From: Methanothrix sp.
GTDB taxonomy: Archaea > Halobacteriota > Methanosarcinia > Methanotrichales > Methanotrichaceae
Reading direction: 5' to 3'
NCBI GenBank assembly: GCA_037128175.1
Contig: JBAXWY010000012.1
Location: forward strand, 1 to 60,009
DNA: 60,009 nucleotides
Shown: piece by piece, positions 1 to 12,167 of the stretch
Layout: each line of letters starts with the position of its first letter
How positions within the stretch are numbered: the first letter of the stretch is position 1
Notes under the pieces: generated by a model
What the model was told of the DNA's origin: nothing
The model's input: the letters and a program-made list of their open reading frames with translations, nothing else
The model's database searches: none
Position numbers and translations under genes: made by a program

Positions 1-284
1 GCATTTCTTTTCCCACTTAGCATTGCTGCACGGTCGATGGGGCTGCTATGCGCCCTGAAAGGCAAAGCTGCAGATCGCTGCCGTGCTCACCTAACTTAAT
101 CTATTTTCGCAAAGCTTGATTTGATTGGATTATTATTACTACTATTGAGTGGAATTGTCGCAAATTAACCGGGTCATCATATCAGGCTTCTTAAACTCGA
201 TGCCTCTTATCAGGATGCGTTTCTCTTCGCTATGGCGGGAGAGCCTCATCTGCATGATTCTCGAAGCGTATTTCTCTTGGGCTA

Positions 285-1025
285 TCAAACGCTGGGTAGA
301 GATAAAATTGATTCTCGTTCGGCTATTTTGCGTGCCAACTCTTCCTCACCTTCAGGTACGGGGATCTCAATGTCGAATGGGGTGCGAATATTGAGTCCGA
401 CAAACTGGGTGAAGGAAAATATGAGCACAGCTGGCTTTTTTCCGGTTCTTTTGTGGAATGTAGCTGCCTCCATCTTCATCAAGAAGGAATGGAATGGATA
501 GACTGCCCCTTCATAAACAATCCCGTTCTCGGAGATATACGCTTCTCTGGGAGATCGAAGTGCATATTTCAGCGCGATTGCCGGCATAACCCTGGAAACT
601 ATGAAAAGGAAAACCATGAATGCAAGAAGAAATGCCCCGGTGATTGAGCCCCCCTCTCCGGCAAATATCATCATAGCCAGTGCGACGAGAATAAGCATTC
701 CACCAATAACGAGAAACATAGCCCGGTTTCTTTCTTGATATTTTGCATATTCTATCCGTGCACTCTGCTCTGCCTCGTCTGCTGAATAGATCCAGTGGGC
801 AAGCAGACTCCTGCCATTCAGAATTGAGTCCATGACCCTTGCCCGGTGGAAAAATAATGCTGCGACAGCAACTCCTGTAACTGCAAGGAAGAATGACACA
901 AAAGCGATAGCATAACCGCCCGACATGCCGTCAATAAAATAGAATGCGTAGATGCAAATGATTGTAAAGATCGCCGTCGAGAACAGCGATCTGTAACACC
1001 ATTTCCACTGAGTGTTCTCCATCAT
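285..1025 (-). CDS. Membrane protein with about four hydrophobic segments, function unknown
   Basis: ORF 285..1151; more plausible start at MMENTQ (1025). Two pairs of hydrophobic helices followed by a soluble C-terminus. Confidence 0.7.
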   Translation of the reverse strand: MMENTQWKWCYRSLFSTAIFTIICIYAFYFIDGMSGGYAIAFVSFFLAVTGVAVAALFFHRARVMDSILNGRSLLAHWIYSADEAEQSARIEYAKYQERNRAMFLVIGGMLILVALAMMIFAGEGGSITGAFLLAFMVFLFIVSRVMPAIALKYALRSPREAYISENGIVYEGAVYPFHSFLMKMEAATFHKRTGKKPAVLIFSFTQFVGLNIRTPFDIEIPVPEGEEELARKIAERESILSLPSV

Positions 1026-1317
1026 CTTTAATCTGCATCCATTATCTGGATAATAATCCTGGCGATATGATGCCATCCTGCAATTTATGAAGGTGTTTAC
1101 AAGAGGCAATCTGCGATGGATAGCAAGTTCACTAACATCAATCAAGATCATTACCCTGTATTATCCCAAAGAAAGGAGATTACATTGGCCTCCCAATCGT
1201 AGGATTCCATTTCTCGGTGGAAGGAAGGTAAGGAAACAATTCGGGTGATGAGGAGAAGCTGAAGCAAATATCTTTAATAGCTTACAGATCTACTAATCTA
1301 TAATAGGTGAGGTTGGC

Positions 1318-1671
1318 ATGAACAAGAAATTTGTGGCCTTATTGCTATTGCCAGCTATGTTGCTGGTAGCACCAATTTGCTTAGCACAATCGGATCATGA
1401 TAACGAACAGGTCTGGCTTCCACCCAGTTGGGTTTTTGGTAGTGGATACACCCCCTATGATTATCCTGGCAGTGTGGGCGGCTGGGGGTACGATCCATTT
1501 TCCTATTATAGCCACCAAGGGAAAACCTATAACTCATACCGCTATTCCAATTACTACTATCCCGGTAGTACCTGGTATCCGTCCTATTATCGATACAACT
1601 ACAACTATCCGTACACTTATCGCAATTATTGGTATCCATACACTTACCATAGCGGTTACTGGTGGTCTTGA
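1318..1671 (+). CDS. Secreted Tyr-rich low-complexity protein
   Basis: Signal-peptide-like MNKKFVALLLLPAMLLVAPICLA; Y/W/P-rich body; AGGTGAGG SD-like motif upstream. Confidence 0.7.
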   Translation: MNKKFVALLLLPAMLLVAPICLAQSDHDNEQVWLPPSWVFGSGYTPYDYPGSVGGWGYDPFSYYSHQGKTYNSYRYSNYYYPGSTWYPSYYRYNYNYPYTYRNYWYPYTYHSGYWWS

Positions 1672-1849
1672 TTATCTCCTGAACTGCTTCCAACATTTTT
1701 TCGGGATCTTTTACACGCCCGGCTTTAGGGATAGCTGGTTGATCGAGTAGATGGGTATAGCTTGATTCCTCGATGGATTCTTGACGAAGCAGTCTCAGTA
1801 GATAATGCCGCTTATGGGATGCTCAGTGGGAAGGTAGCGGCTCCGGCAA

Positions 1850-1893
1850 GCGTGCTCCCGCGTTCCCGCGCGTGCTGGCCTGGGGGCGGGCGG
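1850..1893. repeat. GC-rich cassette-separating element, copy A (truncated, degenerate)
   Basis: cgttcccgcgcgtgctggcctgggggcg matches the 5' core of copies B-E. Confidence 0.6.
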
Positions 1894-1922
1894 ATCTGAA
1901 TTGACCCCCCAACGCCCCCTCT

Positions 1923-2068
1923 TCATCTTTTTTGCTCAATCCTTTGGATTATCGGATACATGTTCAGGTACATGGGCGGAAAATTGCTGTTTTCATACTT
2001 CTTAATGAGGATAGATTATGGCTTTTTTCCAGAGGAATGATGCGTAGTTCCTGAGAAGGGATAATCAT
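1923..2068 (-). pseudogene. Internally deleted GNAT toxin remnant
   Basis: Hand translation: MIIPSQELRIIPLEKSHNLSS resembles the N-terminus of the intact GNAT at 4548-5111 (ISPEELSIEPLSTRFNLSP). It is joined out of frame to KKYENSNFPPMYLNMYPIIQRIEQKR* (compare RRMFLNIREAARQL). Confidence 0.6.
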
Positions 2069-2074
2069 ATCAAA

Positions 2075-2221
2075 TTAGAAAGGATGCTCTTTGTAGAGCT
2101 TGATGGCTTCCTTGAACATCTCTATCTGTTCCTTGGTGGCCTTTGGATTCTTGAGATCTTCAAGGAACTCTTTCGCATCTTCGCCTTCCAGTACCAGCCC
2201 TAGTTCTATGGGATGAGCCAT
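2075..2221 (-). CDS. Small 48-aa putative antitoxin of a GNAT TA pair
   Basis: MAHPIELGLVLEGEDAKEF...MFKEAIKLYKEHPF; paralog of 5111-5263; lies directly upstream of the GNAT remnant. Confidence 0.7.
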   Translation of the reverse strand: MAHPIELGLVLEGEDAKEFLEDLKNPKATKEQIEMFKEAIKLYKEHPF

Positions 2222-2349
2222 CTTTAAAACCTCTGACAAATGTTGGATATTCAATTTTCTTAAGGCTTTGCAGTAATCGACTGGCGAAGCTTTGCCAGGC
2301 TTGAGGTTAGCAAAAGCCGCCCGGAAAAAGCGATGATAGCGATGACTGC

Positions 2350-2447
2350 CGTTCCTGCGCACCCCTGCGCGCGTGCGGGCCTGGGGGCGCGTGGCCAGGG
2401 GACCGGGTGGGCCGACTGGTGGTGGGGTCGGGCCGAATTGCTTGGCC
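2350..2447. repeat. GC-rich cassette-separating element, copy B (partial)
   Basis: gcgcgcgtgcgggcctgggggcgcgtg...gggccgaattgc aligns with the first ~95 bp of copies C-E. Confidence 0.75.
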
Positions 2448-2554
2448 CTCTGACCTTCGTAAAGGCGCGTTAGTAAGCTTGCCTGTAGTTCTTTCGGTGG
2501 TGACTGATTCTCAGGAAAATTGAGGAGTTTTTTTTCGATTAGGAGCACACTGTT

Positions 2555-2809
2555 TCATGCGCTCATTTTCAGCTCTATTTCTCCAGCTACAAGTGGTCTT
2601 GTCAGAAGTTTTCCCAACCGGTACTCTTTCATGACCTCATCGATTTTCTCAGATACTACTGGCGTTACATACGCTTCGCCACAGCAACTGCACACAAGAG
2701 CGGGAACCTTTTTTATGACGACTAATTCTTCTCCCGCCTTCAATACAAGGTCCGTGGAGCCTTCACGCAGCTTGCTTCCACAAAGAGCGCACATATCAGA
2801 ATTTGTCAT
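2555..2809 (-). CDS. YgiT-type zinc-finger (MqsA-like) antitoxin
   Basis: CALC...VPALVCSCCGEAY pattern; ATGA overlap with the upstream DUF4258 gene. Confidence 0.8.
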   Translation of the reverse strand: MTNSDMCALCGSKLREGSTDLVLKAGEELVVIKKVPALVCSCCGEAYVTPVVSEKIDEVMKEYRLGKLLTRPLVAGEIELKMSA

Positions 2810-3120
2810 AATCGCCTCGTTCTACAATTCACCCAGCATTCATCATCCGGCCAATAGACGGTGATTACGCTGAGCCGATCTCCACATATGGCCACCACAA
2901 CATGGCAGGGGTTGCCGGATATAAATCCAAGCATCAGAGCAGCAGGACATGGCTGGCGATTCGGGTAATCTTCTATTATCTCTCCATTGGCTATTAAGCT
3001 TATCAGATCCTTCGTTGTCACATCCCTATCCGACATTCTGATTAGGGCATGCGTAGTGATGATATATCGGCGCTCGCTGACAAGAACTTTAATGCGCTCA
3101 AGCATATCGTTGGACTTCAT
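2806..3120 (-). CDS. DUF4258-family putative toxin
   Basis: T.HAL.RM..R, GEIIEDYP, HVVVA, ITVY.PD motifs typical of DUF4258; paired with a YgiT zinc finger. Confidence 0.8.
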   Translation of the reverse strand: MKSNDMLERIKVLVSERRYIITTHALIRMSDRDVTTKDLISLIANGEIIEDYPNRQPCPAALMLGFISGNPCHVVVAICGDRLSVITVYWPDDECWVNCRTRRL

Positions 3121-3177
3121 CAGCTTCTCCGTTGCCTTCTTGTATTCCTTGGCTTATCTGATTTTCTATGACCAGAA

Positions 3178-3331
3178 GCGCGCTTTCGTGTCCCCGCGCG
3201 CGCGTGCGAGCCTGGGGGCGCGTGCCCGTGGGCCCGGTTGGCCGTGGGGCTGGGGCCGGATTGCCGGAGGTGCTGCTGCCAGGAAGGGCGCGCTGGGATT
3301 GGACGGCGAGGAATTTGTGCTGCGGGTGATG
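3178..3331. repeat. GC-rich cassette-separating element, copy C
   Basis: tccccgcgcgcgcgtgcgagcctgggggcgcgtgcccgtgggcccggttggccgtggggctggggccggattgccggagg...ccaggaagggcgcg...gaatttgtgctg; highly similar to D and E. Confidence 0.9.
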
Positions 3332-3332
3332 G

Positions 3333-3808
3333 TCATTGAAAACGCTTCATAGCTTCCTTGGGATGCAGTACTTTAACCTTGAATCCCGCAGGCATACGAT
3401 ATTGATTGAGAACTCCATCGGTTGTAATAAAATAATCTACATCGTAGGCCATGGCATACCCTAAGTGGACCAGATCCGTAGGCGTCATCCGGTCATCTCT
3501 CCATTCGTTTCCATAAAGATTATGGCAGGCCTCTGCTACAGTCTGGTTAGGATGGAGAAATCGAACATTATAACGGTCCAAGAAGTCTATGAGATCATGC
3601 AGTTCTTCTACACTATGTCTTTTGCCTTCGAAACAGATGGCAGAAACTTCGCCAAGTACAGAAATGGGAATGCATAATGTCACCCCCTCACGAGTTCCTG
3701 CACAAGATATCAGTTTTTTATATCACCAGGGTAGATGCCTCTCCTCCGCTGGCTCTGGTCCCCCAAGGCAAAGAATAGCAGGTCCGCATCGAAGGTTACA
3801 TCGGTCAT
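3333..3808 (-). pseudogene. PIN/VapC toxin split by a frameshift at an A6C run
   Basis: ATG at 3808 gives MTDVTFDADLLFF...GDIKN* (TGA 3712-3710). The -1 frame continues LISCAGTREGVTLCIPISVLGEV...TDLVHLGYA...FITTD, supplying the remaining PIN acidic residues. Confidence 0.7.
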
Positions 3809-3966
3809 TTCTTGCTCCGGAAAGCTCTTCGTACCCTTTCCAGCATCTCATCGTGCTCCTCTTTTGTAATTGCCTTGATGATATTGCCATGAATATCGGT
3901 GATGCCGCCGTAAGGCATAGGATTATTGTGATCAAATTCGAGAGCTTCAGAGGTCTTATCTGTCAT
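3805..3966 (-). CDS. 53-aa putative antitoxin for the PIN toxin
   Basis: Hand-translated MTDKTSEALEFDHNNPMPYGG...RRAFRSKK*; ATGA overlap with the PIN start; below the ORF-track size cutoff. Confidence 0.6.
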   Translation of the reverse strand: MTDKTSEALEFDHNNPMPYGGITDIHGNIIKAITKEEHDEMLERVRRAFRSKK

Positions 3967-4097
3967 GTAGTCACCTTTTCTTGCAGGATCTTACTCTTGC
4001 AGAACAATCCATGTCGATCATCTAAATGCTTTACGGTGCGTTTGGAGCAGCCAAGCTTTGCATTTGCTGATAGACATGTATCTTTTGGCGCATCCAT

Positions 4098-4266
4098 GTG
4101 CGTTCCCGCGCGCGTGCGGGCCTGGGGGGCGCGTGCCCGTGGGCCCGGCTGGCCGTGGGGCTGGGCCCGGATTGCCGGAGGCGATGCTGCCAGGAAGGGC
4201 GCGCCGGGATTGGGCGGCCACGAATTTGCGCTGAGGGTAATATGCATGCAGGATCGTGATTGCAGC
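4098..4266. repeat. GC-rich cassette-separating element, copy D
   Basis: Full-length copy; shares the extension ggatc(g/a)tg(a/g)ttgcag with copy E. Confidence 0.9.
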
Positions 4267-4322
4267 CAGTGGAGAAAATATATCTGATGTTCAATCGGGC
4301 TAAAATAGTGGCTGACTTGCTG

Positions 4323-4390
4323 TTATGGATTCCATAAAGTTAAGAAGCTGACTCGCTTAAAGTCGCCGTCATTAGTGGCCATTTTCCCAT
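4323..4390 (-). pseudogene. C-terminal remnant of a PIN/VapC toxin
   Basis: Alternate frame reads MATNDGDFKRVSFLTLWNP*, resembling the VapC C-terminal T-N-D-x-D-F motif, directly behind a DUF104-like antitoxin. Confidence 0.55.
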
Positions 4391-4579
4391 TTTGTAATCT
4401 TCATGTGCTTCTTCTAGCCTTTCCCAGCATTTCACAATCCCAAAGATCTTACTGGTAGCACTCCTTCGGACTTTTATCTCGACTTCGTCGCCATCTTTTC
4501 GGTCCAGCTCTCCCAGTGGCTTGGGAACTTTGTCAACATATCGCGCTTTAAAGGTTGCTCTTTTCATGACATGGTCCAT
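4340..4579 (-). CDS. DUF104/AF2212-like antitoxin; C-terminus probably altered by the downstream deletion
   Basis: TFKARYVDKVPKPLGELDRKDGDEVEIKV resembles the AF2212 pattern (IxAxYxxGVxKPLxxLxLxEGxxVxI). Confidence 0.6.
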   Translation of the reverse strand: MDHVMKRATFKARYVDKVPKPLGELDRKDGDEVEIKVRRSATSKIFGIVKCWERLEEAHEDYKMGKWPLMTATLSESAS

Positions 4580-5111
4580 CCATCCAGGGGTCCAGAGACT
4601 CCAGAGGCTTTAGCTGCCGGGCAGCTTCTCGAATGTTCAAGAACATCCTGCGGCTCTTCTTCAGAGATCTAAATCCAAAATCCTCATAGAACTTCAGAGC
4701 ATCTTCTTTCGGATCGACCACCAGATATCTGCATCCGATCGGACCTTCAAGAGCTGCTCCGATGGCTAATAAAAGCAGATAGGTTCCAAGTCCGCGACCA
4801 TGAAGTCTCTTATCCACAGCAAGCCGGGCAATCAGAAGGCAAGGATAGATTGGATACTTGCCAACATCCGGGGGCTCATCATCGAGACGATCCACCCGAA
4901 CCGAATCTGCGACCAAAGCAATGTAGCCTGCTGCGCGGTCTCTGCAAAAGCATATGTGCGTCTTGTTGAGAAGGATTTGTTGTTCGCCTAATGCATCTTC
5001 TTTCAAGAACTCATTTAGATCGTCATCGCCCGAGTCAAATGGAGAAAGGTTGAACCTGGTGCTTAGAGGCTCGATGCTCAACTCTTCTGGTGAAATCTTT
5101 TCCCTGGCCAT
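4548..5111 (-). CDS. GNAT acetyltransferase toxin (AtaT/TacT-like)
   Basis: FDSGDDDLNEFLKEDA, LIARLAVDKRLHGRGLG (acetyl-CoA motif), FYEDFGF. Confidence 0.85.
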   Translation of the reverse strand: MAREKISPEELSIEPLSTRFNLSPFDSGDDDLNEFLKEDALGEQQILLNKTHICFCRDRAAGYIALVADSVRVDRLDDEPPDVGKYPIYPCLLIARLAVDKRLHGRGLGTYLLLLAIGAALEGPIGCRYLVVDPKEDALKFYEDFGFRSLKKSRRMFLNIREAARQLKPLESLDPWMDGPCHEKSNL

Positions 5112-5263
5112 TAAAATCTGCTGCGATTGGCTCTGTAAATCCGCTTGGCTTCTTTAAACATGGCTAACTGTCCTGGCGTAAATGCAGTGATCTCCTCGTT
5201 CTTCCAGAACTCCTTTGCCGCTTCACCTTCGAGAACCAAGCCGAGTCTGACTGGTTTTGCCAT
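5111..5263 (-). CDS. 50-aa putative antitoxin of the GNAT toxin
   Basis: Hand-translated MAKPVRLGLVLEGEAAKEFWKNEEITAFTPGQLAMFKEAKRIYRANRSRF*; TAATG overlap with the GNAT start. Confidence 0.75.
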   Translation of the reverse strand: MAKPVRLGLVLEGEAAKEFWKNEEITAFTPGQLAMFKEAKRIYRANRSRF

Positions 5264-5420
5264 TCTTTGCACCATCCTCAGGAATTCAATTATGTGCCGC
5301 TATTATTTAATGGTAATCGATCTTTGGAGGAAAACCTGAAGATTGAGCGTTGAAGCCGGTCAGGCGGCAGAAATCGATGGCTGAGATCATCGGCTTTGCC
5401 TGCAAAGCAGTCCTGACGGG

Positions 5421-5593
5421 GCGCGCTTCCGCGTCCCCGCGCGCGCGTGCGTGCCTGGGTGGCGCGTGCCCGGGGGCCCGGCTGGCCGTGGGGCCGGATT
5501 GCTGGAGGCGATGCTGCCAGGAAGGGCGTGTCTGGATTTGGCGGCGAGGAATTTGCGCTGCTGTTGATGGGCAAGCGGGATCATGGTTGCAGT
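5421..5593. repeat. GC-rich cassette-separating element, copy E
   Basis: Full-length copy with a short internal deletion relative to C and D. Confidence 0.9.
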
Positions 5594-5704
5594 CGGAGCA
5601 TGCGGGCAGGAGATGTTTTGGCGCAGAATTCTGAAAACCAAATAAAAATTTTCGGACCTGCGACCGTTCCCCTTTATTAATATGAGGAAACAAGCAATCT
5701 TCAA

Positions 5705-6415
5705 ATGGATAAGCCTGATTCCCATTATGTTGTTCCGCAGAATCGGTCCATCAGAGAATGGCCCGAAACGGAACGGCCCCGTGAAAAGTTGATCAAAGTG
5801 GGAGCTGAGGCTTTATCAGATGGCGAACTATTAGCAATTATTCTGCGAATCGGCAATCATGGGCAATCTGCAGAGGACTTGGGTCGTGAGCTCTTGGCCC
5901 GTTGGGGTGGATTGCCCGGATTGGATCGGGTCCATATTGAAGAGCTACTCTCTTTTCCGGGTCTTGGGATTGCAAAGGCAGCTCAGCTCAAAGCGGCGAT
6001 CGAGATAGGTAAACGTGTCCGAATACAGGAATCTCTGCCTCAAAGTTTCAATTCTTATTCGGAGGTAGTAGCTTATTTTGGTCCGCGTTTTGAGGGTAAA
6101 CGCTACGAATGCTTTCTTGCATTGTTGCTCGATGGCCAGAATCAATTATTGGCGGAACGAATGATTACAGAAGGCATTCCAACTCAGGCGACTATTTACG
6201 TTCGAAGGATTATGGAAGAAGCCCTCAGAGCATCAGCCAGTTCTTTCGTTGTTGTTCATAATCATCCTTCTGGAAACCCTCAGCCTTCTTCAGCGGATGA
6301 TGAGACAACGAAAAATTTAAAAATTGCCTCAGAAGTACTGAACCTTGTTTTCCTAGACCACGTCATTCTTGGTACAGGCAGCTATTACAGCTACGCAGAG
6401 CATAAGAGGATTTGA
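5705..6415 (+). CDS. radC: RadC family JAB-domain protein
   Basis: RPREKL...LSDGELLAI N-terminus, HhH GLGIAKA, JAMM motif HNHPSGNPQPSSAD, LDHVI. Confidence 0.92.
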   Translation: MDKPDSHYVVPQNRSIREWPETERPREKLIKVGAEALSDGELLAIILRIGNHGQSAEDLGRELLARWGGLPGLDRVHIEELLSFPGLGIAKAAQLKAAIEIGKRVRIQESLPQSFNSYSEVVAYFGPRFEGKRYECFLALLLDGQNQLLAERMITEGIPTQATIYVRRIMEEALRASASSFVVVHNHPSGNPQPSSADDETTKNLKIASEVLNLVFLDHVILGTGSYYSYAEHKRI

Positions 6416-6436
6416 ATACGCTAAAGGAGCAAATGA

Positions 6437-6710
6437 ATGGTGTCAGATACCTACGCAAAAGCTGATGAGATTCAGATAAAAGGCAGTCAAATTTTTAGCC
6501 CGGTAAGGCAAAAATGGCTCCTGCTCACTCCTGAGGAGCTAGTGCGCCAAGAATACTTAAAAATATTAATACAAGAATATGATTATCATCATAACCAGAT
6601 TGCCGAAGAAATGGATGTGACAGGTCGCGGCAGTGCCCAGGCCCGCGCTGACTTTGTTATCTGGCGCACATCTAGGGATAGGCTGGACCAAAAACCACCT
6701 CTTATTTTTT
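6437..6710 (+). pseudogene. Truncated type I restriction HsdR N-terminal-domain gene
   Basis: R.KW...TPEELVRQ.Y...L...Y.Y...I.EE...RADFVI motif; similarity stops at the palindrome at ~6713. Confidence 0.7.
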
Positions 6711-6712
6711 AT

Positions 6713-6740
6713 GAATACCCCGCAGCTTGCTGCGCGGGTG
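6713..6740. mobile_element. Palindrome resembling an IS200/IS605-type subterminal hairpin
   Basis: gaataccccgcagcttgctgcgcgggt: imperfect inverted repeat at the junction of two gene fragments. Confidence 0.4.
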
Positions 6741-6754
6741 CGCCGCCGTTTCAC

Positions 6755-7085
6755 TAAGGAGAATAAAATCAAACACATCAAGGCTCGCGTCAAGCATCCT
6801 CAGACCAATGGAAAATTAGAAAAATGGAACGACACTTATGAACGCAACAGGTTTAGGTTCGAGAATTTTGACAATTTCATGAATTGGTATAATACGGTTA
6901 GATTTCATGAATCGCTGGATACAAAATGGTATCTACAGACGCCAGATATCGCATTCTGGTCAAGGCTGCCGGATGGGTGCAAATTGGGAATGTTCCTGAA
7001 TCGGATGGAGACTGAATTAAATGGTTGCTGAAGAATATAACGATCCGGCCGGAGTATATAAAGTCCAAACATTCGGGACTCTACA
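6755..7085 (+). mobile_element. IS481-family 3' remnant (integrase-core C-terminus plus terminal repeat)
   Basis: IKHIKARVKHPQTNGKLEKW...WYNTVRFHESL (rve C-terminal motifs); ends in ...ttcgggactctACA, i.e. TGTAGAGTCCCG on the reverse strand. Confidence 0.75.
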
Positions 7086-7158
7086 GTAAAGCTTCAATAC
7101 CAATAAATAGAGATAGTACTGTATAGTTATGTGACAAAGGCAATACATTCGATCACTT

Positions 7159-8370
7159 ATGACAATAAAACAAGACCCAACAGAACGCGAGGGGAAAAGT
7201 CGCAGCATCAGCATCCCCGTCAAACCTGCCGTCCTCATCTGGGCAAGAGAGAGCGTGGGCAGGACAGTCAAAGAAGCGGCTGCCATGCTTGGCGAAAGCG
7301 AAGAGCAGGTCTTGCAGTGGGAAGCAGGCCAACAGCAGCCCCTGCTGCACCAGGTAAAGGCCCTGGCCAGGTTTTATAAGCGCCCTCTTGCCGCATTCTT
7401 CCTGCCTGGTCCCCCGCAGGAACTGTCTCTCCCCCACGATTTTCGCACCCTTCCCGATGAGAATGAGATACCGCTGTCTTCCAAAACCAGGCTTGCCATG
7501 CGCCAGGCAAGGAGGCTTCAGTCCATAGCCTCAGAGCTAAAAGAAGACGATGAAGGCGATTTTCATGCTCGCATTGGGCGAGCGTTGCTATCCGATGATC
7601 CGGAAGCGTTGGCCAGCAAAGTTAGGGAATCATTAGGTATTTCATTGGAAGAGCAATTGTCCTGGGAAAAAGATACTAGCGCCATGGATCGGTGGAAAAA
7701 ATCCGTTGAAAGCCAAGGCATTCTCGTATTTCAGATGTCAATGCCCCTGGAAGAAACAAGAGCGTTTTCATTTACCGATGGAGGCCTGCCGGTAATCGTA
7801 ATAAATACAAAAGACGCCTTGAAAGCCAGGATCTTTTCATTGTTCCATGAACTGGGACACATCCTTTTAAATGAAGGCGGAATATGCGATCCGAGCAAAT
7901 TGGGCGGAGAGGAATCCACTAAGAAAGACAGGTCCATCGAGGCTTTCTGCAACTTTTTTGCCGGCGGCGTTCTAATTCCAAAGGAAGGTTTGCTTTGCCA
8001 TCGCTTAGTTGTAGGAAAGACACCTTCCTACAAATGGCCAGAGAGAATTCTTGGCACAATCTCCAATGATTTCAAGGTGAGCAAAGAGGTTGTTTTAAGA
8101 AGGCTGCTCATAGCTGGATTGACCTCCCGAGAATTCTATTCCCTTAAGCACAATGATTGGATGAAAAAAGAAAAAAAACCGGATTCTGCCAAGGGAAAAG
8201 GCATCAAAAGAGATATTCCCAGAGAATGCCTTCAGCGAAACGGCACGCCATTGACCTCACTTGTCCTCGATTCATACAGAAACGAAAGGATCACCACCAG
8301 CGATGTAGCCGACTATCTGGGAATTCGCGTTAAGCATATTCCTCGAATAGAAAAGCTTCTTGAGGCCTAG
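7159..8370 (+). CDS. XRE-HTH plus ImmA/IrrE (peptidase M78) protein
   Basis: N-terminal HTH (WARE...QWEAG...P); FSLFHELGHILL HExxH motif; EAFCNFFAG. Confidence 0.88.
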   Translation: MTIKQDPTEREGKSRSISIPVKPAVLIWARESVGRTVKEAAAMLGESEEQVLQWEAGQQQPLLHQVKALARFYKRPLAAFFLPGPPQELSLPHDFRTLPDENEIPLSSKTRLAMRQARRLQSIASELKEDDEGDFHARIGRALLSDDPEALASKVRESLGISLEEQLSWEKDTSAMDRWKKSVESQGILVFQMSMPLEETRAFSFTDGGLPVIVINTKDALKARIFSLFHELGHILLNEGGICDPSKLGGEESTKKDRSIEAFCNFFAGGVLIPKEGLLCHRLVVGKTPSYKWPERILGTISNDFKVSKEVVLRRLLIAGLTSREFYSLKHNDWMKKEKKPDSAKGKGIKRDIPRECLQRNGTPLTSLVLDSYRNERITTSDVADYLGIRVKHIPRIEKLLEA

Positions 8371-8372
8371 AT

Positions 8373-8858
8373 TTGATCCAGCTTCGCTTGCAGGAAGGCT
8401 ATTGCATTGATACATCGGCATTGATTGACATGCACACCAATCATTATCCACCTGATATTTTTCCAGGCTTGTGGAAGGACCTTGAATCCCTTGTCGATCA
8501 GGGATTGCTAATTGCACCCGATGAAGTCTTTCACGAAATATGTGTGAAGGATGATGGATTAGCAAAATGGGGAAAGTCCAACAAAAAAATGTTCATTCCC
8601 CTTGATGTTGATCAAAGTCAAGAAGTTTCACGTATCCTGGAAAAATTTCCTGGCCTTGTAGATCAGAATAAAACGATTCCTGAGGCTGATCCGTTCCTAA
8701 TCGCGTTAGCAAAGTGCAGAGCCTGGACGGTTGTTACATCAGAACGGCCCAACAATAGCCCCGTCAAGCCAAAGATACCGAATGTATGCAAGAGCCTTAA
8801 TGTAAGATGGATCCGATTATTGGAGTTTTTCAGAGAGGTTGAATTATTATATAAATAA
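8373..8858 (+). CDS. DUF4411 PIN-like protein
   Basis: YCIDTSALI, EVFHEI, ADPFLIALA, VVTSE, KIPNVC; usual partner of XRE-ImmA genes. Confidence 0.85.
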   Translation: MIQLRLQEGYCIDTSALIDMHTNHYPPDIFPGLWKDLESLVDQGLLIAPDEVFHEICVKDDGLAKWGKSNKKMFIPLDVDQSQEVSRILEKFPGLVDQNKTIPEADPFLIALAKCRAWTVVTSERPNNSPVKPKIPNVCKSLNVRWIRLLEFFREVELLYK

Positions 8859-8900
8859 TATTATATTAATAGTGGCTGAAAGCAGAAAATAAGAATGAAT

Positions 8901-8955
8901 GTTCCCCCGGGCGGCCTGCCCCCGCGCGCGCTCGCCCGCCCGCAGCTCCGCTGCC
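8901..8955. repeat. Short GC-rich element upstream of the MNT-HEPN pair
   Basis: Contains ccccgcgcgcgc, also the 5' core of copies C and E; strong GC spike in AT-rich intergenic DNA. Confidence 0.4.
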
Positions 8956-9087
8956 ATGGATACCGAAGAGCCTGGCATTTGCATGATCAGTTTCGTCAAT
9001 GGCGACATCAGTATGCTTCTACCCCTGCCGGAAACGCATACGTTTAAATTTCATGCCGTCTTATTATACTTCAGAGTCCGACCAGAT

Positions 9088-9384
9088 ATGCCCATGAAAA
9101 TTGATGAACTGCTGAAAGCCAAGCGCCAGGAGATCCTGGACATAGCCGCCAGGCACGGTGCCCATAACCTTCGGGTCTTCGGCTCCGTTGCCCGAGGAGA
9201 GTCCGGGCCGGAGAGCGATCTGGATATTCTGGTAGAGATGGAGCCAGGAAAAAGCCTATTGGATCATGTGGCCCTAATGCAGGACCTCGAAGACCTCCTG
9301 CAGCGAAAGGTGGATGTTGTTAGCGAGAGAGCCCTGCATTGGTACATTCGGGACAAAGTGCTCGCTGAGGCTACGCCACTATGA
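9088..9384 (+). CDS. Minimal nucleotidyltransferase (MntA-like antitoxin)
   Basis: VFGSVARGE...SDLDILV motif; start at MPMKID rather than 8899. Confidence 0.9.
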   Translation: MPMKIDELLKAKRQEILDIAARHGAHNLRVFGSVARGESGPESDLDILVEMEPGKSLLDHVALMQDLEDLLQRKVDVVSERALHWYIRDKVLAEATPL

Positions 9385-9725
9385 AGGATGATCGGGTTTA
9401 CTTGATCCATATCTGGGAATGCATTCAACGCATCGAGTCTTACTCTATTGAAGGCAGGTCTGCATTTTTGGCATCTACAATGATGCAGGATGCAATTATC
9501 AGGAACTTTGAGATTATTGGAGAAGCCACCAAGCATCTATCTTTGGAGATGAGACAATCACATCCCGAAATCCAATGGCGAGGACTGGCAGGATTTCGAG
9601 ATGTGCTAATTCACAATTACATGGGAGTTGATTTGGTCGAAGTCTGGAACATCATTGAAAATGAACTCATCCATATCAAGAGCAGCCTTGAGCCAATAAT
9701 GACTGAGCTTCAGTTACTTCCGTAA
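9381..9725 (+). CDS. HEPN/DUF86 toxin (HepT-like)
   Basis: DAIIRNFEIIGEA and RDVLIHNY (RX4HXY); ATGA overlap with the MNT gene. Confidence 0.9.
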   Translation: MKDDRVYLIHIWECIQRIESYSIEGRSAFLASTMMQDAIIRNFEIIGEATKHLSLEMRQSHPEIQWRGLAGFRDVLIHNYMGVDLVEVWNIIENELIHIKSSLEPIMTELQLLP

Positions 9726-9728
9726 GAC

Positions 9729-10421
9729 TCACTTTCTCCCGATCCTCTCCACCCCGTCCCCTCTCGCCAGGTACAGCTCGTCCAGGTTGTCGAAAATCCC
9801 GTGCTCCACCACACCCGGAATGGGGCTGATTTTCGCAGCCAGACCCTTCGGATCAACGATAACCCCAAAGTCCACATCCATCACAAAGTTGCCGTTGTCC
9901 GTGATCACCGGCCCGTCCTTCCTCACGCCCTGTCGCAGCACCGGCTTTCCGCCCAGCTCCACCAGCTTCCGCTCCACCAGCCGGAAAGCAAAAGGCAGAA
10001 CCTCCACCGGCACCGGCCAGGTGAGCTTTTCCACATACTTGCTCTCATCGGCTACTATTACGAACCGCCGCGCTGAGCAGGCCACCACCTTCTCTCGCGT
10101 GTGCGCCGCTCCCCCGCCCTTGATGACGAACAGGTTATGGTCAACCTGATCGGCTCCGTCGATGGCCAGATCCAGCACAGGGTGCGAATTGAGCGTGGTC
10201 AGTTTTATCCCTGAGGCGATGGCCAGATTCTCGGCCTGAAAGGAGGTGGGAACTCCCCAAAAGTCCAGCCCCTCCTCTTTCACTCTTTCGCCCAGCCGCT
10301 TGATGGTCCAGGCCACGGTTGAGCCCGTGCCCAGGCCCACCACCATGCCGCCCTTCACTAAATCTGCAGCCGCCTCACCGGCAAGCCTTTTGGCATCCGC
10401 ATTAGCAGAAACGTCTTTCAT
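9729..10421 (-). CDS. rpiA: Ribose-5-phosphate isomerase A
   Basis: [25 protein letters not shown] motifs. Confidence 0.95.
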
Positions 10422-10448
10422 GAAAGCCTCTAAATAAAATGGATTTAA

Positions 10449-10518
10449 CTTTTGTGTCTTTGTTCCTTCATGGTGAACCCGGAACGACGCTCACCACAAA
10501 GACACAAAGGCACAAAGG
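10449..10518. repeat. ACAAAG-periodic inverted repeat pair
   Basis: tttgtgtctttgttccttcatggtga facing tcaccacaaagacacaaaggcacaaag. Confidence 0.75.
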
Positions 10519-10556
10519 ACGAAATTCTGGTCTCCTTCCTACCCTCAACCCTTAGC

Positions 10557-12167
10557 TCACACGATCTCGCTCTTCACCGTGGTGAACACCGGTCCACGCA
10601 GGTCCATCTTGTGCTTGTAGCTGGTGATGTACCTCTCCAGAGCTGGATGGATCTTGATGTTGATATCCCCAGGGCTTCTCACGATGCGGGCGCGCGTCTC
10701 CGACTCCAATCCGGCCATGGCGGCCACCTCGATCTCGTAGGCGGCCAGCGCGGCAAAGGCGTCGATGTACTTGATGCCCGTGCTCACGCCCTCGTTGAAG
10801 GCCTCCTCCCAGCGGGAGGTGCGGGGAATGCCCATAATGTTCTGCTTGTGCACCACGATCTCGTTTTGGGCAGCCGGGCCGCACAGCTTTGTGTTCTCCT
10901 CTGGCTCGACCACGGATACCTTGACTTTTCTCCCGAAGAGCTCCCCCTCCCAGGCCGCAAACTGGCAGGGCGAAGTCGTCTCTCCATGCTCGGTAGAGAC
11001 AGCAACCACAGCCTGTGCTATGGCCTGGCCGGCAGGCGTTGTGGGCAGCTTCTCCACGGATATCATCTGCGCCATCTCCCGGGCGGAAAGCTCCCAGTTG
11101 GTCTGGAACTGCGGATAAGAGAGGGCCCGCATATCCTGGGAGTTATGCAGTATCATGGCAATCCTCTCCACACCCAGCCCCAGGTTCATGACTGGATAGG
11201 GAATGTCGTACTGGGAGAGGGCTGTAGGCGAGTAGATGCCGAAGGTGGCCACCTCCACCCATCCCGACTTGTATTTGGTGGCCGAACCGACCAGGCCGGG
11301 GTGGTAGGCAAAGACCTCGATCTGCGTTCCGGGAATGTAGTACTTGCTTCGCTTGTCGTCCGGCCGGAACTGAAACTTCTCAAAGCCAAACTGGCTGAGC
11401 AGGCCGTCGGCAACCGCTTTTCCGTCCTCCACGCTCACATCTTCATCCATGATCACGCAGCTCGCCGAGTAGTAGCTCATCAGCCGTGCCGCATCCTCCG
11501 CCTGTTCGCGCCGGAAGCAGCGGTCCACAGAGAAAAGCTTGAGCGGCAGCTTTGTGCGGTGATGAAGATTGGAGAGCGACAAAAACCATCCCGAGGTCAT
11601 GTGGCTTCGCAGCGTGCGCGTCGTGGCCTCGGCCTTCAGCTCCCTAAACTCAGGAAATACCTTCTCCAGGACGACAGAGATGAGGGCATCATGAGCGCCC
11701 AGGGCTTTGGCGATCTCCTGCACCAGGTCGTCGCCCTCCACCTTGCCCTTCTTGTAGCCGTGCAGAATCTGGCGCAGGGCCTCTGCCTCTTCCCCGGAAA
11801 GTTCCCGGCCCAGAAGGGCACTTACCTGAGAGATCCTCTCATCGGACATGCCTATATCGGGCCGGGGCAACCCCGCCAGGTAAAAGCAGCGATCCAGCAC
11901 GGCCAGCGCCTCCGAGCCGAACTGGCGGTAAACGTCCGATGCTTCGACCATCACCGGGTTCATGGCCTCGGAGAAGCCCAGCCGGATGTAGGCCTCCCGA
12001 AGCTTCTGAATGGTATCGAATATGGGGTGCACTGCCCCGAAAGAATAGCTATTTCTGGGATATTTCTCGTTTAGGGAAGGCTTGCCGAGATACTCCTTCC
12101 CCTGCTGCCAGGCCTTATCGAAATCCTCTTTGGCAGCCTCTTTAATCAGGCTGGGATCAAACTTCAT
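10557..12167 (-). CDS. sepS: O-phosphoseryl-tRNA(Cys) synthetase
   Basis: TLRSHMTSGWF, FSVDRCFRREQ, MNLGLGVER, LCGPAA motifs; 536 aa. Confidence 0.95.
   Translation of the reverse strand: MKFDPSLIKEAAKEDFDKAWQQGKEYLGKPSLNEKYPRNSYSFGAVHPIFDTIQKLREAYIRLGFSEAMNPVMVEASDVYRQFGSEALAVLDRCFYLAGLPRPDIGMSDERISQVSALLGRELSGEEAEALRQILHGYKKGKVEGDDLVQEIAKALGAHDALISVVLEKVFPEFRELKAEATTRTLRSHMTSGWFLSLSNLHHRTKLPLKLFSVDRCFRREQAEDAARLMSYYSASCVIMDEDVSVEDGKAVADGLLSQFGFEKFQFRPDDKRSKYYIPGTQIEVFAYHPGLVGSATKYKSGWVEVATFGIYSPTALSQYDIPYPVMNLGLGVERIAMILHNSQDMRALSYPQFQTNWELSAREMAQMISVEKLPTTPAGQAIAQAVVAVSTEHGETTSPCQFAAWEGELFGRKVKVSVVEPEENTKLCGPAAQNEIVVHKQNIMGIPRTSRWEEAFNEGVSTGIKYIDAFAALAAYEIEVAAMAGLESETRARIVRSPGDINIKIHPALERYITSYKHKMDLRGPVFTTVKSEIV

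Follow-up and report, generated by a model that had tools for sequence, protein, structure and literature searches.

A contig of 60,009 nucleotides from Methanothrix sp. (assembly GCA_037128175.1, contig JBAXWY010000012.1), taken in its entirety and hereafter called the window, carries an array of small toxin-antitoxin (TA) operons separated by a G+C-rich repeat. The genome to which it belongs comprises 2.96 Mb, is 99.8% complete and has a G+C content of 51%. The repeat occurs as five copies in direct orientation, lettered A to E, all inside 3.8 kb of the window (Table 1), and every insert between them holds TA-type genes on the minus strand, as identified by family matches and tblastn, with several of the toxins decayed. 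An original prediction made from these letters had proposed a cassette array punctuated by a site other than the attC site of integrons, and both this core idea and the five direct copies at their predicted places were confirmed.

Copies C, D and E are 84-90% identical to one another over 127-159 nt (BLAST, E 1e-40 to 1e-47), which far exceeds what chance would produce. A whole-genome BLAST search together with an unfiltered profile search recovered the five copies at a single locus, the next-best match having E = 1.4. Scatter of copies across the genome, which the prediction had named as an outcome contrary to it, is thus not what the genome holds, and this confinement to one locus indicates that the element is not a dispersed repetitive extragenic palindrome (REP) or miniature inverted-repeat transposable element (MITE). 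Indeed, REP sequences, bacterial interspersed mosaic elements and MITEs are similar in being short, GC-rich intergenic repeats, whereas the Methanothrix copies are neither dispersed nor palindromic. Copies A and B had also been considered a stub and a partial copy at the decayed end of a polar gradient, a view that did not survive comparison with other species. Copy B is full length, and its right-end variant, which precedes the YgiT cassette, recurs in loci L015, L024, L075 and L082 (L numbers denote array loci and G numbers the genomes compared). The internal deletion of copy A is found in G012 as well (L019 9109-9222, 95.7% identity), and its tail is matched in copy L021 10906-11109, at the right end. 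Since the states of both copies recur in other species, they are inherited states and not an age gradient.

Presence of the repeat was scored at E ≤ 1e-4 across 58 other Methanothrix genomes and 46 genomes of the family's 15 other genera. Matches, mostly as arrays, were found in 13 of the 58 and in none of the 46, which places the array in one genus. Copies in these arrays are spaced 0.7-1.3 kb apart, and most positive genomes carry them in the same general neighbourhood, the shared neighbours being a Tyr-rich small secreted protein, radC, ImmA-DUF4411, MNT-HepT and rpiA-SepRS. The complete genome G020 was negative by BLAST, yet the profile search detected two strongly diverged copies flanking a GNAT cassette (Table 1), in which the conserved sequence islands are retained. 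As BLAST missed these copies, 13/58 is a lower bound and the distribution within the genus is underestimated. When one genome of each prokaryote species was scanned for exact 19-mers, only Methanothrix/Methanotrichaceae arrays and single chance matches in high-G+C bacteria were returned, and no matches were found in viral contigs or in plasmids.

The cargo belongs to type II TA systems by virtue of a DUF4258 gene with a YgiT finger, GNAT genes, an AF2212-like gene and a PIN gene, while the gene at 3333-3683 and three small partner genes match no family. The contents predicted for the inserts stood in part. Between A and B, the expected GNAT pair is represented by an intact antitoxin, and its toxin is reduced to two remnants. 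Between D and E, a GNAT gene with its antitoxin and a DUF104 gene are present as predicted, and the accompanying PIN gene is limited to its last 20 residues; the intact homologue in G084 matches Pfam PIN (4.5e-15). The antitoxin of the long GNAT toxin belongs to a family of 13 members that adjoin GNAT genes. Between C and D, the toxin gene of the predicted PIN pair is split by a frameshift and matches no Pfam or NCBIfam family; a language-model look-up that placed it among PIN/VapC clusters (0.92) suggests, as a lead only, that it is PIN-like. The start of this gene overlaps the stop of the 53-aa putative antitoxin gene (ATGA), its frame breaks at a run of A, and its stop codon abuts copy C, as had been noted. 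The main open reading frame (ORF) is 115-116 aa long in 4/4 loci (window, L015, L022 and L024), and the split may reflect either an ancient frameshift common to these loci or programmed frameshifting.

Cassette order in related genomes

The cassettes of the window recur in other species at 83-96% identity and in different orders. This genome has a short GNAT cassette followed by the YgiT/DUF4258, PIN-like and long GNAT cassettes; G013 has YgiT, long GNAT, PIN (family F34), PIN-like and YgiT; G084 has PIN-like, GNAT, YgiT and PIN (family F5). The blocks shared with G013 end at window positions 1888, 3332/3333, 4100, 4203 and 5497, all of them in or at repeat copies. Fixed cassette content with breakpoints unrelated to the repeat, the second outcome held to be contrary to the prediction, is therefore not the pattern between these species, with the exception of two deletion junctions in G012 and one junction in a metagenome contig that fall outside the copies and are weighed below.

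The orientation of the cargo was scored for 34 inserts bounded by two copies, from 17 loci. TA homologues were on the minus strand only in 32 of them, on the plus strand only in one and absent from one, although many of these inserts are orthologous and hence not independent. At least seven cargo types are found across the arrays. None of the arrays shows a cassette duplicated recently in tandem; where GNAT or YgiT cassettes occur twice, they are old paralogues that are about 80-85% or less alike.

Sites without an array and intermediate forms were also sought. A candidate empty site (attB) was rejected, the flank genes being 59 kb apart in the complete genome G020 and unlinked in G086, and so was an attB derived from the array flank of G101/G015, a flank present in 47 of 59 genomes with no shared core at the junction. 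The evidence from sequencing runs consists of Logan contigs, which are unable to reveal circles; none of them spans the array, and they break at the repeats. One contig from an RNA library joins 1869 to 2371 in register, but one of its sides comprises only 21 letters and its depth is 4.2, which makes it too weak to use.

A two-armed repeat with a central exchange zone

The repeat is 170-230 nt long and consists of two parts, with a G+C content of about 65% against 51% for the genome and a G-over-C skew of +0.21 on the plus strand. An alignment of 24 near-full copies, unreliable in the variable middle, was followed by profiling of 58 copies at 23 loci, namely the window, 16 genome loci and six metagenome loci, after exclusion of four metagenome contigs (three with the same sequence as the window and one with a shorter version of L075). 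Positions within the repeat are given below in model coordinates. The left block (model 38-84) is about 50 nt long, is separated from the first gene of its unit, on the upstream side, by about 60-150 nt and includes a nearly invariant tract of 24 nt (model 61-84) as well as an alternating purine-pyrimidine tract of 10-17 nt. The latter is conserved, with a median of 13 nt, a length of at least 13 nt being reached in 2.7% of shuffles. The middle (model 85-118) is indel-rich, built of G-rich sub-repeats and the least conserved part. It is followed by GGATTGC at model 119-125, which is almost invariant, and by the right block, which extends to model ~205 (about 80 nt) and lies directly downstream of the toxin gene. 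The two halves share one G-rich strand and are not complementary to each other.

The copies differ by 1-nt indels, which argues that the repeat is non-coding. A coding role was rejected, since minus-strand ORFs are out of frame between copies, C being shifted relative to D and E. A G-quadruplex was likewise rejected as the defining feature: a canonical plus-strand motif is present in 18 of 30 full copies, as against 31% of mononucleotide shuffles, and is absent from C, D and E. A search of Rfam gave no match in 1-12000 at E ≤ 1.

Copies were next labelled by their left and right neighbour cassettes, and the identity of each block was compared between genomes. For the left block (38-84), identity was 0.870 when only the left neighbour was shared (n = 92) and 0.864 when both were, compared with 0.805 when only the right neighbour was shared and 0.795 when neither was; for the right block (119-165), the corresponding values were 0.855 when only the right neighbour was shared (n = 44), 0.837 with both, 0.760 with only the left and 0.755 with neither, these pair counts overstating the sample because orthologous copies are not independent. 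A sliding-window comparison shows no linkage to the right neighbour as far as ~118; such linkage emerges at 121-130 (+0.12) and rises outwards. Reading of the alignments further revealed a dimorphism at model 85-93 that tracks the left neighbour in 4 of 6 copies, and an indel at model ~137 that tracks the right neighbour in three independent contexts. This linkage profile indicates that each block moves with its own cassette and that exchange takes place at model ~85-120. Being the least conserved part of the repeat and rich in indels, this zone is poorly suited to crossover driven by homology.

Exchange at the centre is borne out in part by half copies. Those with a right block only, in the orthologous loci L013 and L021, begin at model 119-120 and form the left array ends in G015 and G101. 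Among those with a left block only, six of one junction class end at model 115-125 and a second class ends at 117.

Some cargo is found free of arms. The long GNAT pair of G009 directly adjoins rpiA, with no repeat detectable by the unfiltered profile, and the PIN-like pairs of G090 and G098 have no convincing repeat (best E = 0.13 over 26 nt). Homology of such cargo to the window cassettes stops near the operon; for the GNAT pair it covers 4577-5325, ending about 50 nt upstream of the antitoxin start. The arms were thus either gained on recruitment or lost later, and they are a property of array membership.

Features and surroundings of the array

The features of the array are listed in Table 1. 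The sequence to the left of copy A resembles cassette-specific leaders, and its similarity to sequence left of copies in two other loci suggests, on a weak reading of the alignments, that it may be a relic of a further cassette. A stretch of 24 nt at 8917-8940, at the 5' end of the MNT ORF, shares 79% identity with the beginning of the left block; the profile search was silent there, and the stretch may be due to chance or be the relic of another copy.

Table 1. Repeat copies, cassette genes and adjoining features (window positions unless a locus is named)
Feature	Position	Strand	Remarks
Leader-like sequence left of copy A	1762..1835		motif ...GGTAGCGGCTCCGGCA... common to sequence left of copies in L015 and L024
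Copy A	1836..1930	+	left block (model 28-82) joined via internal deletion to right-block tail; nhmmer
Short-type GNAT toxin, two remnants	1926..2068	-	residues 1-24 and 149-176 of 176; tblastn
Antitoxin of short GNAT cassette, intact, 48 aa	2078..2221	-	tblastn 97.9% over 48/48 residues to L021 antitoxin; no Pfam or NCBIfam family match
Copy B	2350..2521	+	full length, diverged right block accompanying YgiT cassette; nhmmer model 42-205
YgiT/MqsA-type zinc-finger antitoxin	2555..2809	-	NCBIfam TIGR03831, 3.6e-11; Pfam MqsA_antitoxin below cut-off
DUF4258 toxin-like gene	2806..3120	-	Pfam PF14076, 3.7e-22
Copy C	3156..3371	+	conserved core ~3178-3335
PIN-like toxin gene (putative), two frames	3333..3808	-	N-terminal piece 3710-3808, main ORF 3333-3683; translations
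53-aa putative antitoxin	3805..3966	-	position and overlapping stop/start with PIN-like gene; no family match
Copy D	4054..4282	+	conserved core ~4098-4250
PIN toxin remnant, last 20 residues	4326..4385	-	tblastn; intact in G084
DUF104/AF2212-like antitoxin	4340..4579	-	Pfam PF01954, 5.5e-07
GNAT acetyltransferase toxin, long type	4548..5111	-	Pfam Acetyltransf_10, _1, _7
54-aa antitoxin of long GNAT toxin	5111..5275	-	homologous to antitoxin 2078-2221; no Pfam match
Copy E	5385..5600	+	conserved core ~5421-5580; final copy, followed by radC
RadC-like JAB protein	5705..6415	+	right flank, not a cassette; Pfam RadC 5.9e-36, UPF0758_N 8.9e-27
Diverged copies of G020	L097 (G020:C1) 5524-5733 and 7078-7137		around GNAT cassette; profile search

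The junction between copy E and radC recurs in L022 and L081. Beyond it lie a broken HsdR-N/insertion sequence (IS) fragment, an ImmA/IrrE-DUF4411 pair, an MNT-HepT pair and rpiA, which locates the array in a TA/defence island. The broken fragment (6437-7031) comprises an ORF with a type I restriction R N-terminal domain (HSDR_N_2, 4.7e-11) that is cut short, followed by an integrase-core (rve_3) fragment. A spike of contig depth at 6658-6974 (128 in run X6, compared with ~8-16 in neighbouring bins) fits a multi-copy insertion sequence. The interval 7159-9725 holds two repeat-free modules of two genes each, HTH-Peptidase_M78 (ImmA/IrrE) with DUF4411 and nucleotidyltransferase (MNT) with HepT. 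The final repeat copy of G012 has its left block fused straight to the MNT gene. The junction of the GNAT pair with rpiA and SepRS is present on two contigs of G009 (L098 = C7, L099 = C6), reflecting either duplication or redundant assembly.

Small secreted proteins extremely rich in Tyr, Trp and Pro lie beside arrays in several species, for example at 1318-1671 (+) of the window and L021 8205-8633 (-); the window protein matches no Pfam family. To the left of the Tyr-rich gene and the short array of G012, L019 (G012:C3) 5894-8436 contains ORFs resembling transposase fragments and a TnpB-like protein, by the look of their translations. Among the genes of the array flanks are those for membrane and secreted proteins, for a histidine kinase and for an OLD-type ATPase, together with a phosphorylase-like gene and genes of no assigned function.

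Possible mechanisms and relation to known systems

The array is not an integron. The attC boxes R'' (RYYYAAC) and R' (GTTRRRY) occur together in 0 of the 58 copies, the five window copies have neither box on either strand, and no box pair at 40-135 nt spacing is present in 1700-5700; the window contains no integrase. The absence of boxes and integrase had been remarked on in the prediction. In addition, usual attC sites are shorter than 170-230 nt. A remnant of a canonical integron, that is, a cluster of attC sites lacking an integron integrase (CALIN), would account for a co-oriented and TA-rich array, and CALINs make up most archaeal integrons reported so far (PMC9668308). Given the missing boxes, the absence of IntI, the length of the repeat and its non-complementary halves, we regard the chances of this explanation as close to negligible.

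The account that we favour, tentatively and at somewhat less than even chances, is an integrase-less gene-cassette array of Methanothrix in which units would be exchanged at the centre of the spacer in a manner resembling site-specific recombination, by a putative enzyme acting in trans and by way of circles. Each unit is a TA operon with two different non-coding arms, the right block after the toxin gene and the left block upstream. The repeat of 170-230 nt arises at the junction of two units, from the left block of one, an indel-rich and G-rich linker and the right block of the next. Exchange at GGATTGC, or immediately to its left, reshuffles whole units and brings about their loss and gain; they may move as circles with one joined left-right site that re-enter at a resident site, with the putative enzyme encoded away from the array. 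Homologous recombination acts on the copies as well. A more specific version, an independent cassette-capture system with circular TA units, a two-part site of about 190 nt, a crossover fixed within GGATTGC and a putative recombinase encoded elsewhere, appears rather unlikely.

Several observations weigh against this account of exchange by an enzyme, beyond the non-independence of the orthologous copies already mentioned. In G012, junctions that join window 2320 to 5121 and 5471 to 9186 do not follow the repeats, and a metagenome contig (L076) fuses a DUF104 fragment to the PIN-like gene without using the repeat. For the largest junction class at GGATTGC, a single old deletion between GATT microhomologies offers another reading, and further truncation junctions lie at model 82, 94, 99 and 106. 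Copies with different neighbours are 0.04-0.07 more alike within a genome than between genomes, at model 85-144 only, and in windows 85-112 similarity within a genome equals or exceeds that of orthologues, C, D and E being 0.91-0.95 alike there; this excess at the centre shows gene conversion at work. Moreover, the trans-acting recombinase of the original prediction found no candidate. The best TIGR02249 (IntI) score in the genome was 40.7 bits against a cut-off of 265, and no recombinase lies beside the arrays within the flanks screened, which extended to at most 5 kb per locus, many loci being short contigs, and from which 10 unclear ORFs were run against Pfam. Two intact tyrosine recombinases are encoded on other contigs of the genome and were rejected because they do not co-occur with the repeat: they are present in 9/14 and 7/14 repeat-positive genomes versus 26/45 and 18/45 negative ones, and G084, which is 97% complete and has five copies, lacks both.

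The folded structure that had been predicted for the element fared no better, and its failure counts against the favoured account as well as against a site of the integron kind. Dinucleotide shuffles fold at least as well as copy D itself, whether as DNA or as RNA and for both strands (z = +0.7 to +1.6), and folding tests supported no dyad-symmetric core or hairpin in the repeat. The RNAalifold consensus reached -11.3 kcal/mol on the plus strand, which is weak, and -0.9 on the minus strand, which is essentially none. In the plus-strand consensus, 93.8% of cells pair; double-change pairs number 7 compared with 2.3 in shuffles, each in a single sequence, and the variation is mostly C to U opposite G. 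The long-range helix would have its two arms in different cassettes. A folded site is thus not supported.

The principal alternative is that homologous recombination alone is at work, with RadA-driven unequal exchange, deletion, duplication and conversion between direct repeats of 170-230 nt permuting and pruning an inherited set of TA operons; the high G+C and alternating CG tract of the spacer may make it break-prone, or be a product of GC-biased gene conversion. We consider this explanation nearly as probable as the favoured account, and homologous recombination is without doubt active at the locus. Direct repeats this long must recombine, no recombinase would be required and none was found, and duplication followed by deletion can yield any order. 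The excess similarity of copies within a genome is confined to the centre, as conversion would have it, and copy D at model ~126-142 has the window-type variant instead of the right-neighbour-linked variant of other species, a conversion patch. Cassette identities of 83-96% alongside flank identities of 91-95% also fit vertical descent with rearrangement. What homologous recombination leaves unexplained is that at least seven unrelated TA operons have both arms and one orientation, and that both blocks are fully linked to their own cassette. Furthermore, exchanges fall in the least conserved part of the repeat and not in its near-invariant 24-nt tract, and recent tandem duplicates are absent from all arrays. 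It is these points, the complete arm linkage, an exchange zone ill-suited to homology, the common orientation of unrelated operons and the lack of recent duplicates, that make us prefer exchange at the spacer centre by a putative enzyme.

Two further explanations are less likely. The repeat could be an immobile functional spacer, an insulator, terminator or protein-binding boundary needed by each TA operon, with ordinary deletions as the only rearrangements. Conserved islands retained in diverged copies agree with such a role, as does the position of the element between convergently insulated operons that each have their own promoter-proximal region. Two RNA-library contigs (2400-2611 and 2371-2543) connect the 3' end of YgiT with the right block of copy B, which is weak evidence as DNA may be present in such libraries. 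Nevertheless, the order of cassettes varies between species besides their content, the same TA operons exist elsewhere without the element, and the element has no oligo-T tract or terminator-like hairpin, which makes a purely functional spacer quite improbable. Scans for sigma-70 promoters and intrinsic terminators were at chance level, with models unsuited to Archaea. Alternatively, the units could be transposon-like, with two ends recognised by a transposase encoded elsewhere (e.g., of the IS200/IS605-type HUH family), tandem insertion and a middle that represents the joint. Two different ends that are each linked to the cargo, a hypervariable joint between units, half copies at array ends and the TnpB-like ORF beside the G012 array would all suit this idea, and the genome has Y1 transposase genes (5 matches). 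These genes lie on other contigs only and are unlinked to the array, no transposase adjoins an array in the flanks screened, and the unit ends lack the supported subterminal hairpins that, together with a nearby Y1 gene, are expected of IS200/IS605 elements. A transposon should also scatter, whereas the array keeps to a single locus, and we therefore deem this explanation very unlikely.

Several known systems come close to the Methanothrix array. Modules bounded by Xer-dependent pdif sites on Acinetobacter plasmids are small, include TA pairs and depend on a host enzyme encoded elsewhere; their sites are 28 bp long, in alternating inverted orientation and plasmid-borne, whereas those of Methanothrix are long, directly repeated and chromosomal. 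Xer/dif-type modules have 28-bp sites with two inverted arms around a spacer of 6-8 bp, in alternating orientation; the Methanothrix copies are all directly oriented, and no Xer-type site was identified in an analysis that had no archaeal dif reference for comparison. Tandem accretion of integrative elements at one attachment site similarly produces composite sites between units and half sites at some ends, but the Methanothrix units are only 0.4-1.1 kb, have no integrase and gave no shared attB core when flanks were compared. In the orphan toxin-immunity arrays of cdi/rhs loci, toxin/antidote modules between homologous segments can be swapped by homologous recombination, and the repeats are coding fragments of the main toxin. 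By contrast, the Methanothrix spacer is non-coding, as its 1-nt indels indicate, and has no main gene. Sedentary chromosomal integrons and CALINs, among them the archaeal ones described by Ghaly et al. (2022, PMC9668308), are alike in having small co-oriented cassettes at one chromosomal locus, with order and content varying between relatives, many TA pairs with their own promoters and spacers conserved within a lineage. They differ from the Methanothrix array, which has no attC boxes, hairpin, IntI or attI, has a spacer of 170-230 nt and is found in one genus. An integron attC also travels nearly whole with its upstream gene, whereas the halves of the Methanothrix spacer belong to different cassettes. 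The main text of the archaeal-integron paper (PMC9668308) does not mention Methanothrix, Methanosaeta, Halobacterota or Methanosarcin-. No published description of the array was found in the literature searched, including the available portions of PMC9668308 and PMC4158269; the supplementary integron and CALIN lists of PMC9668308 lie outside this search and might include Methanothrix.

The locus thus combines integron-like behaviour, namely a single site, a common orientation, TA cargo and permuted order, with a different, two-armed anatomy, in an abundant and globally important genus of methanogens. Among platforms for stockpiling and reshuffling gene cassettes, integrons alone are, to our knowledge, well understood, and the birth of cassettes has yet to be explained. 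If a dedicated enzyme exists, the array would represent a new archaeal recombination system, and if the fixed crossover at GGATTGC proved true, Archaea would have a cassette system whose site and enzyme are both unrelated to those of integrons. If there is no dedicated enzyme, plain homologous recombination would be able to mimic an integron, which would call for caution with "integron-like" arrays reported from metagenomes.

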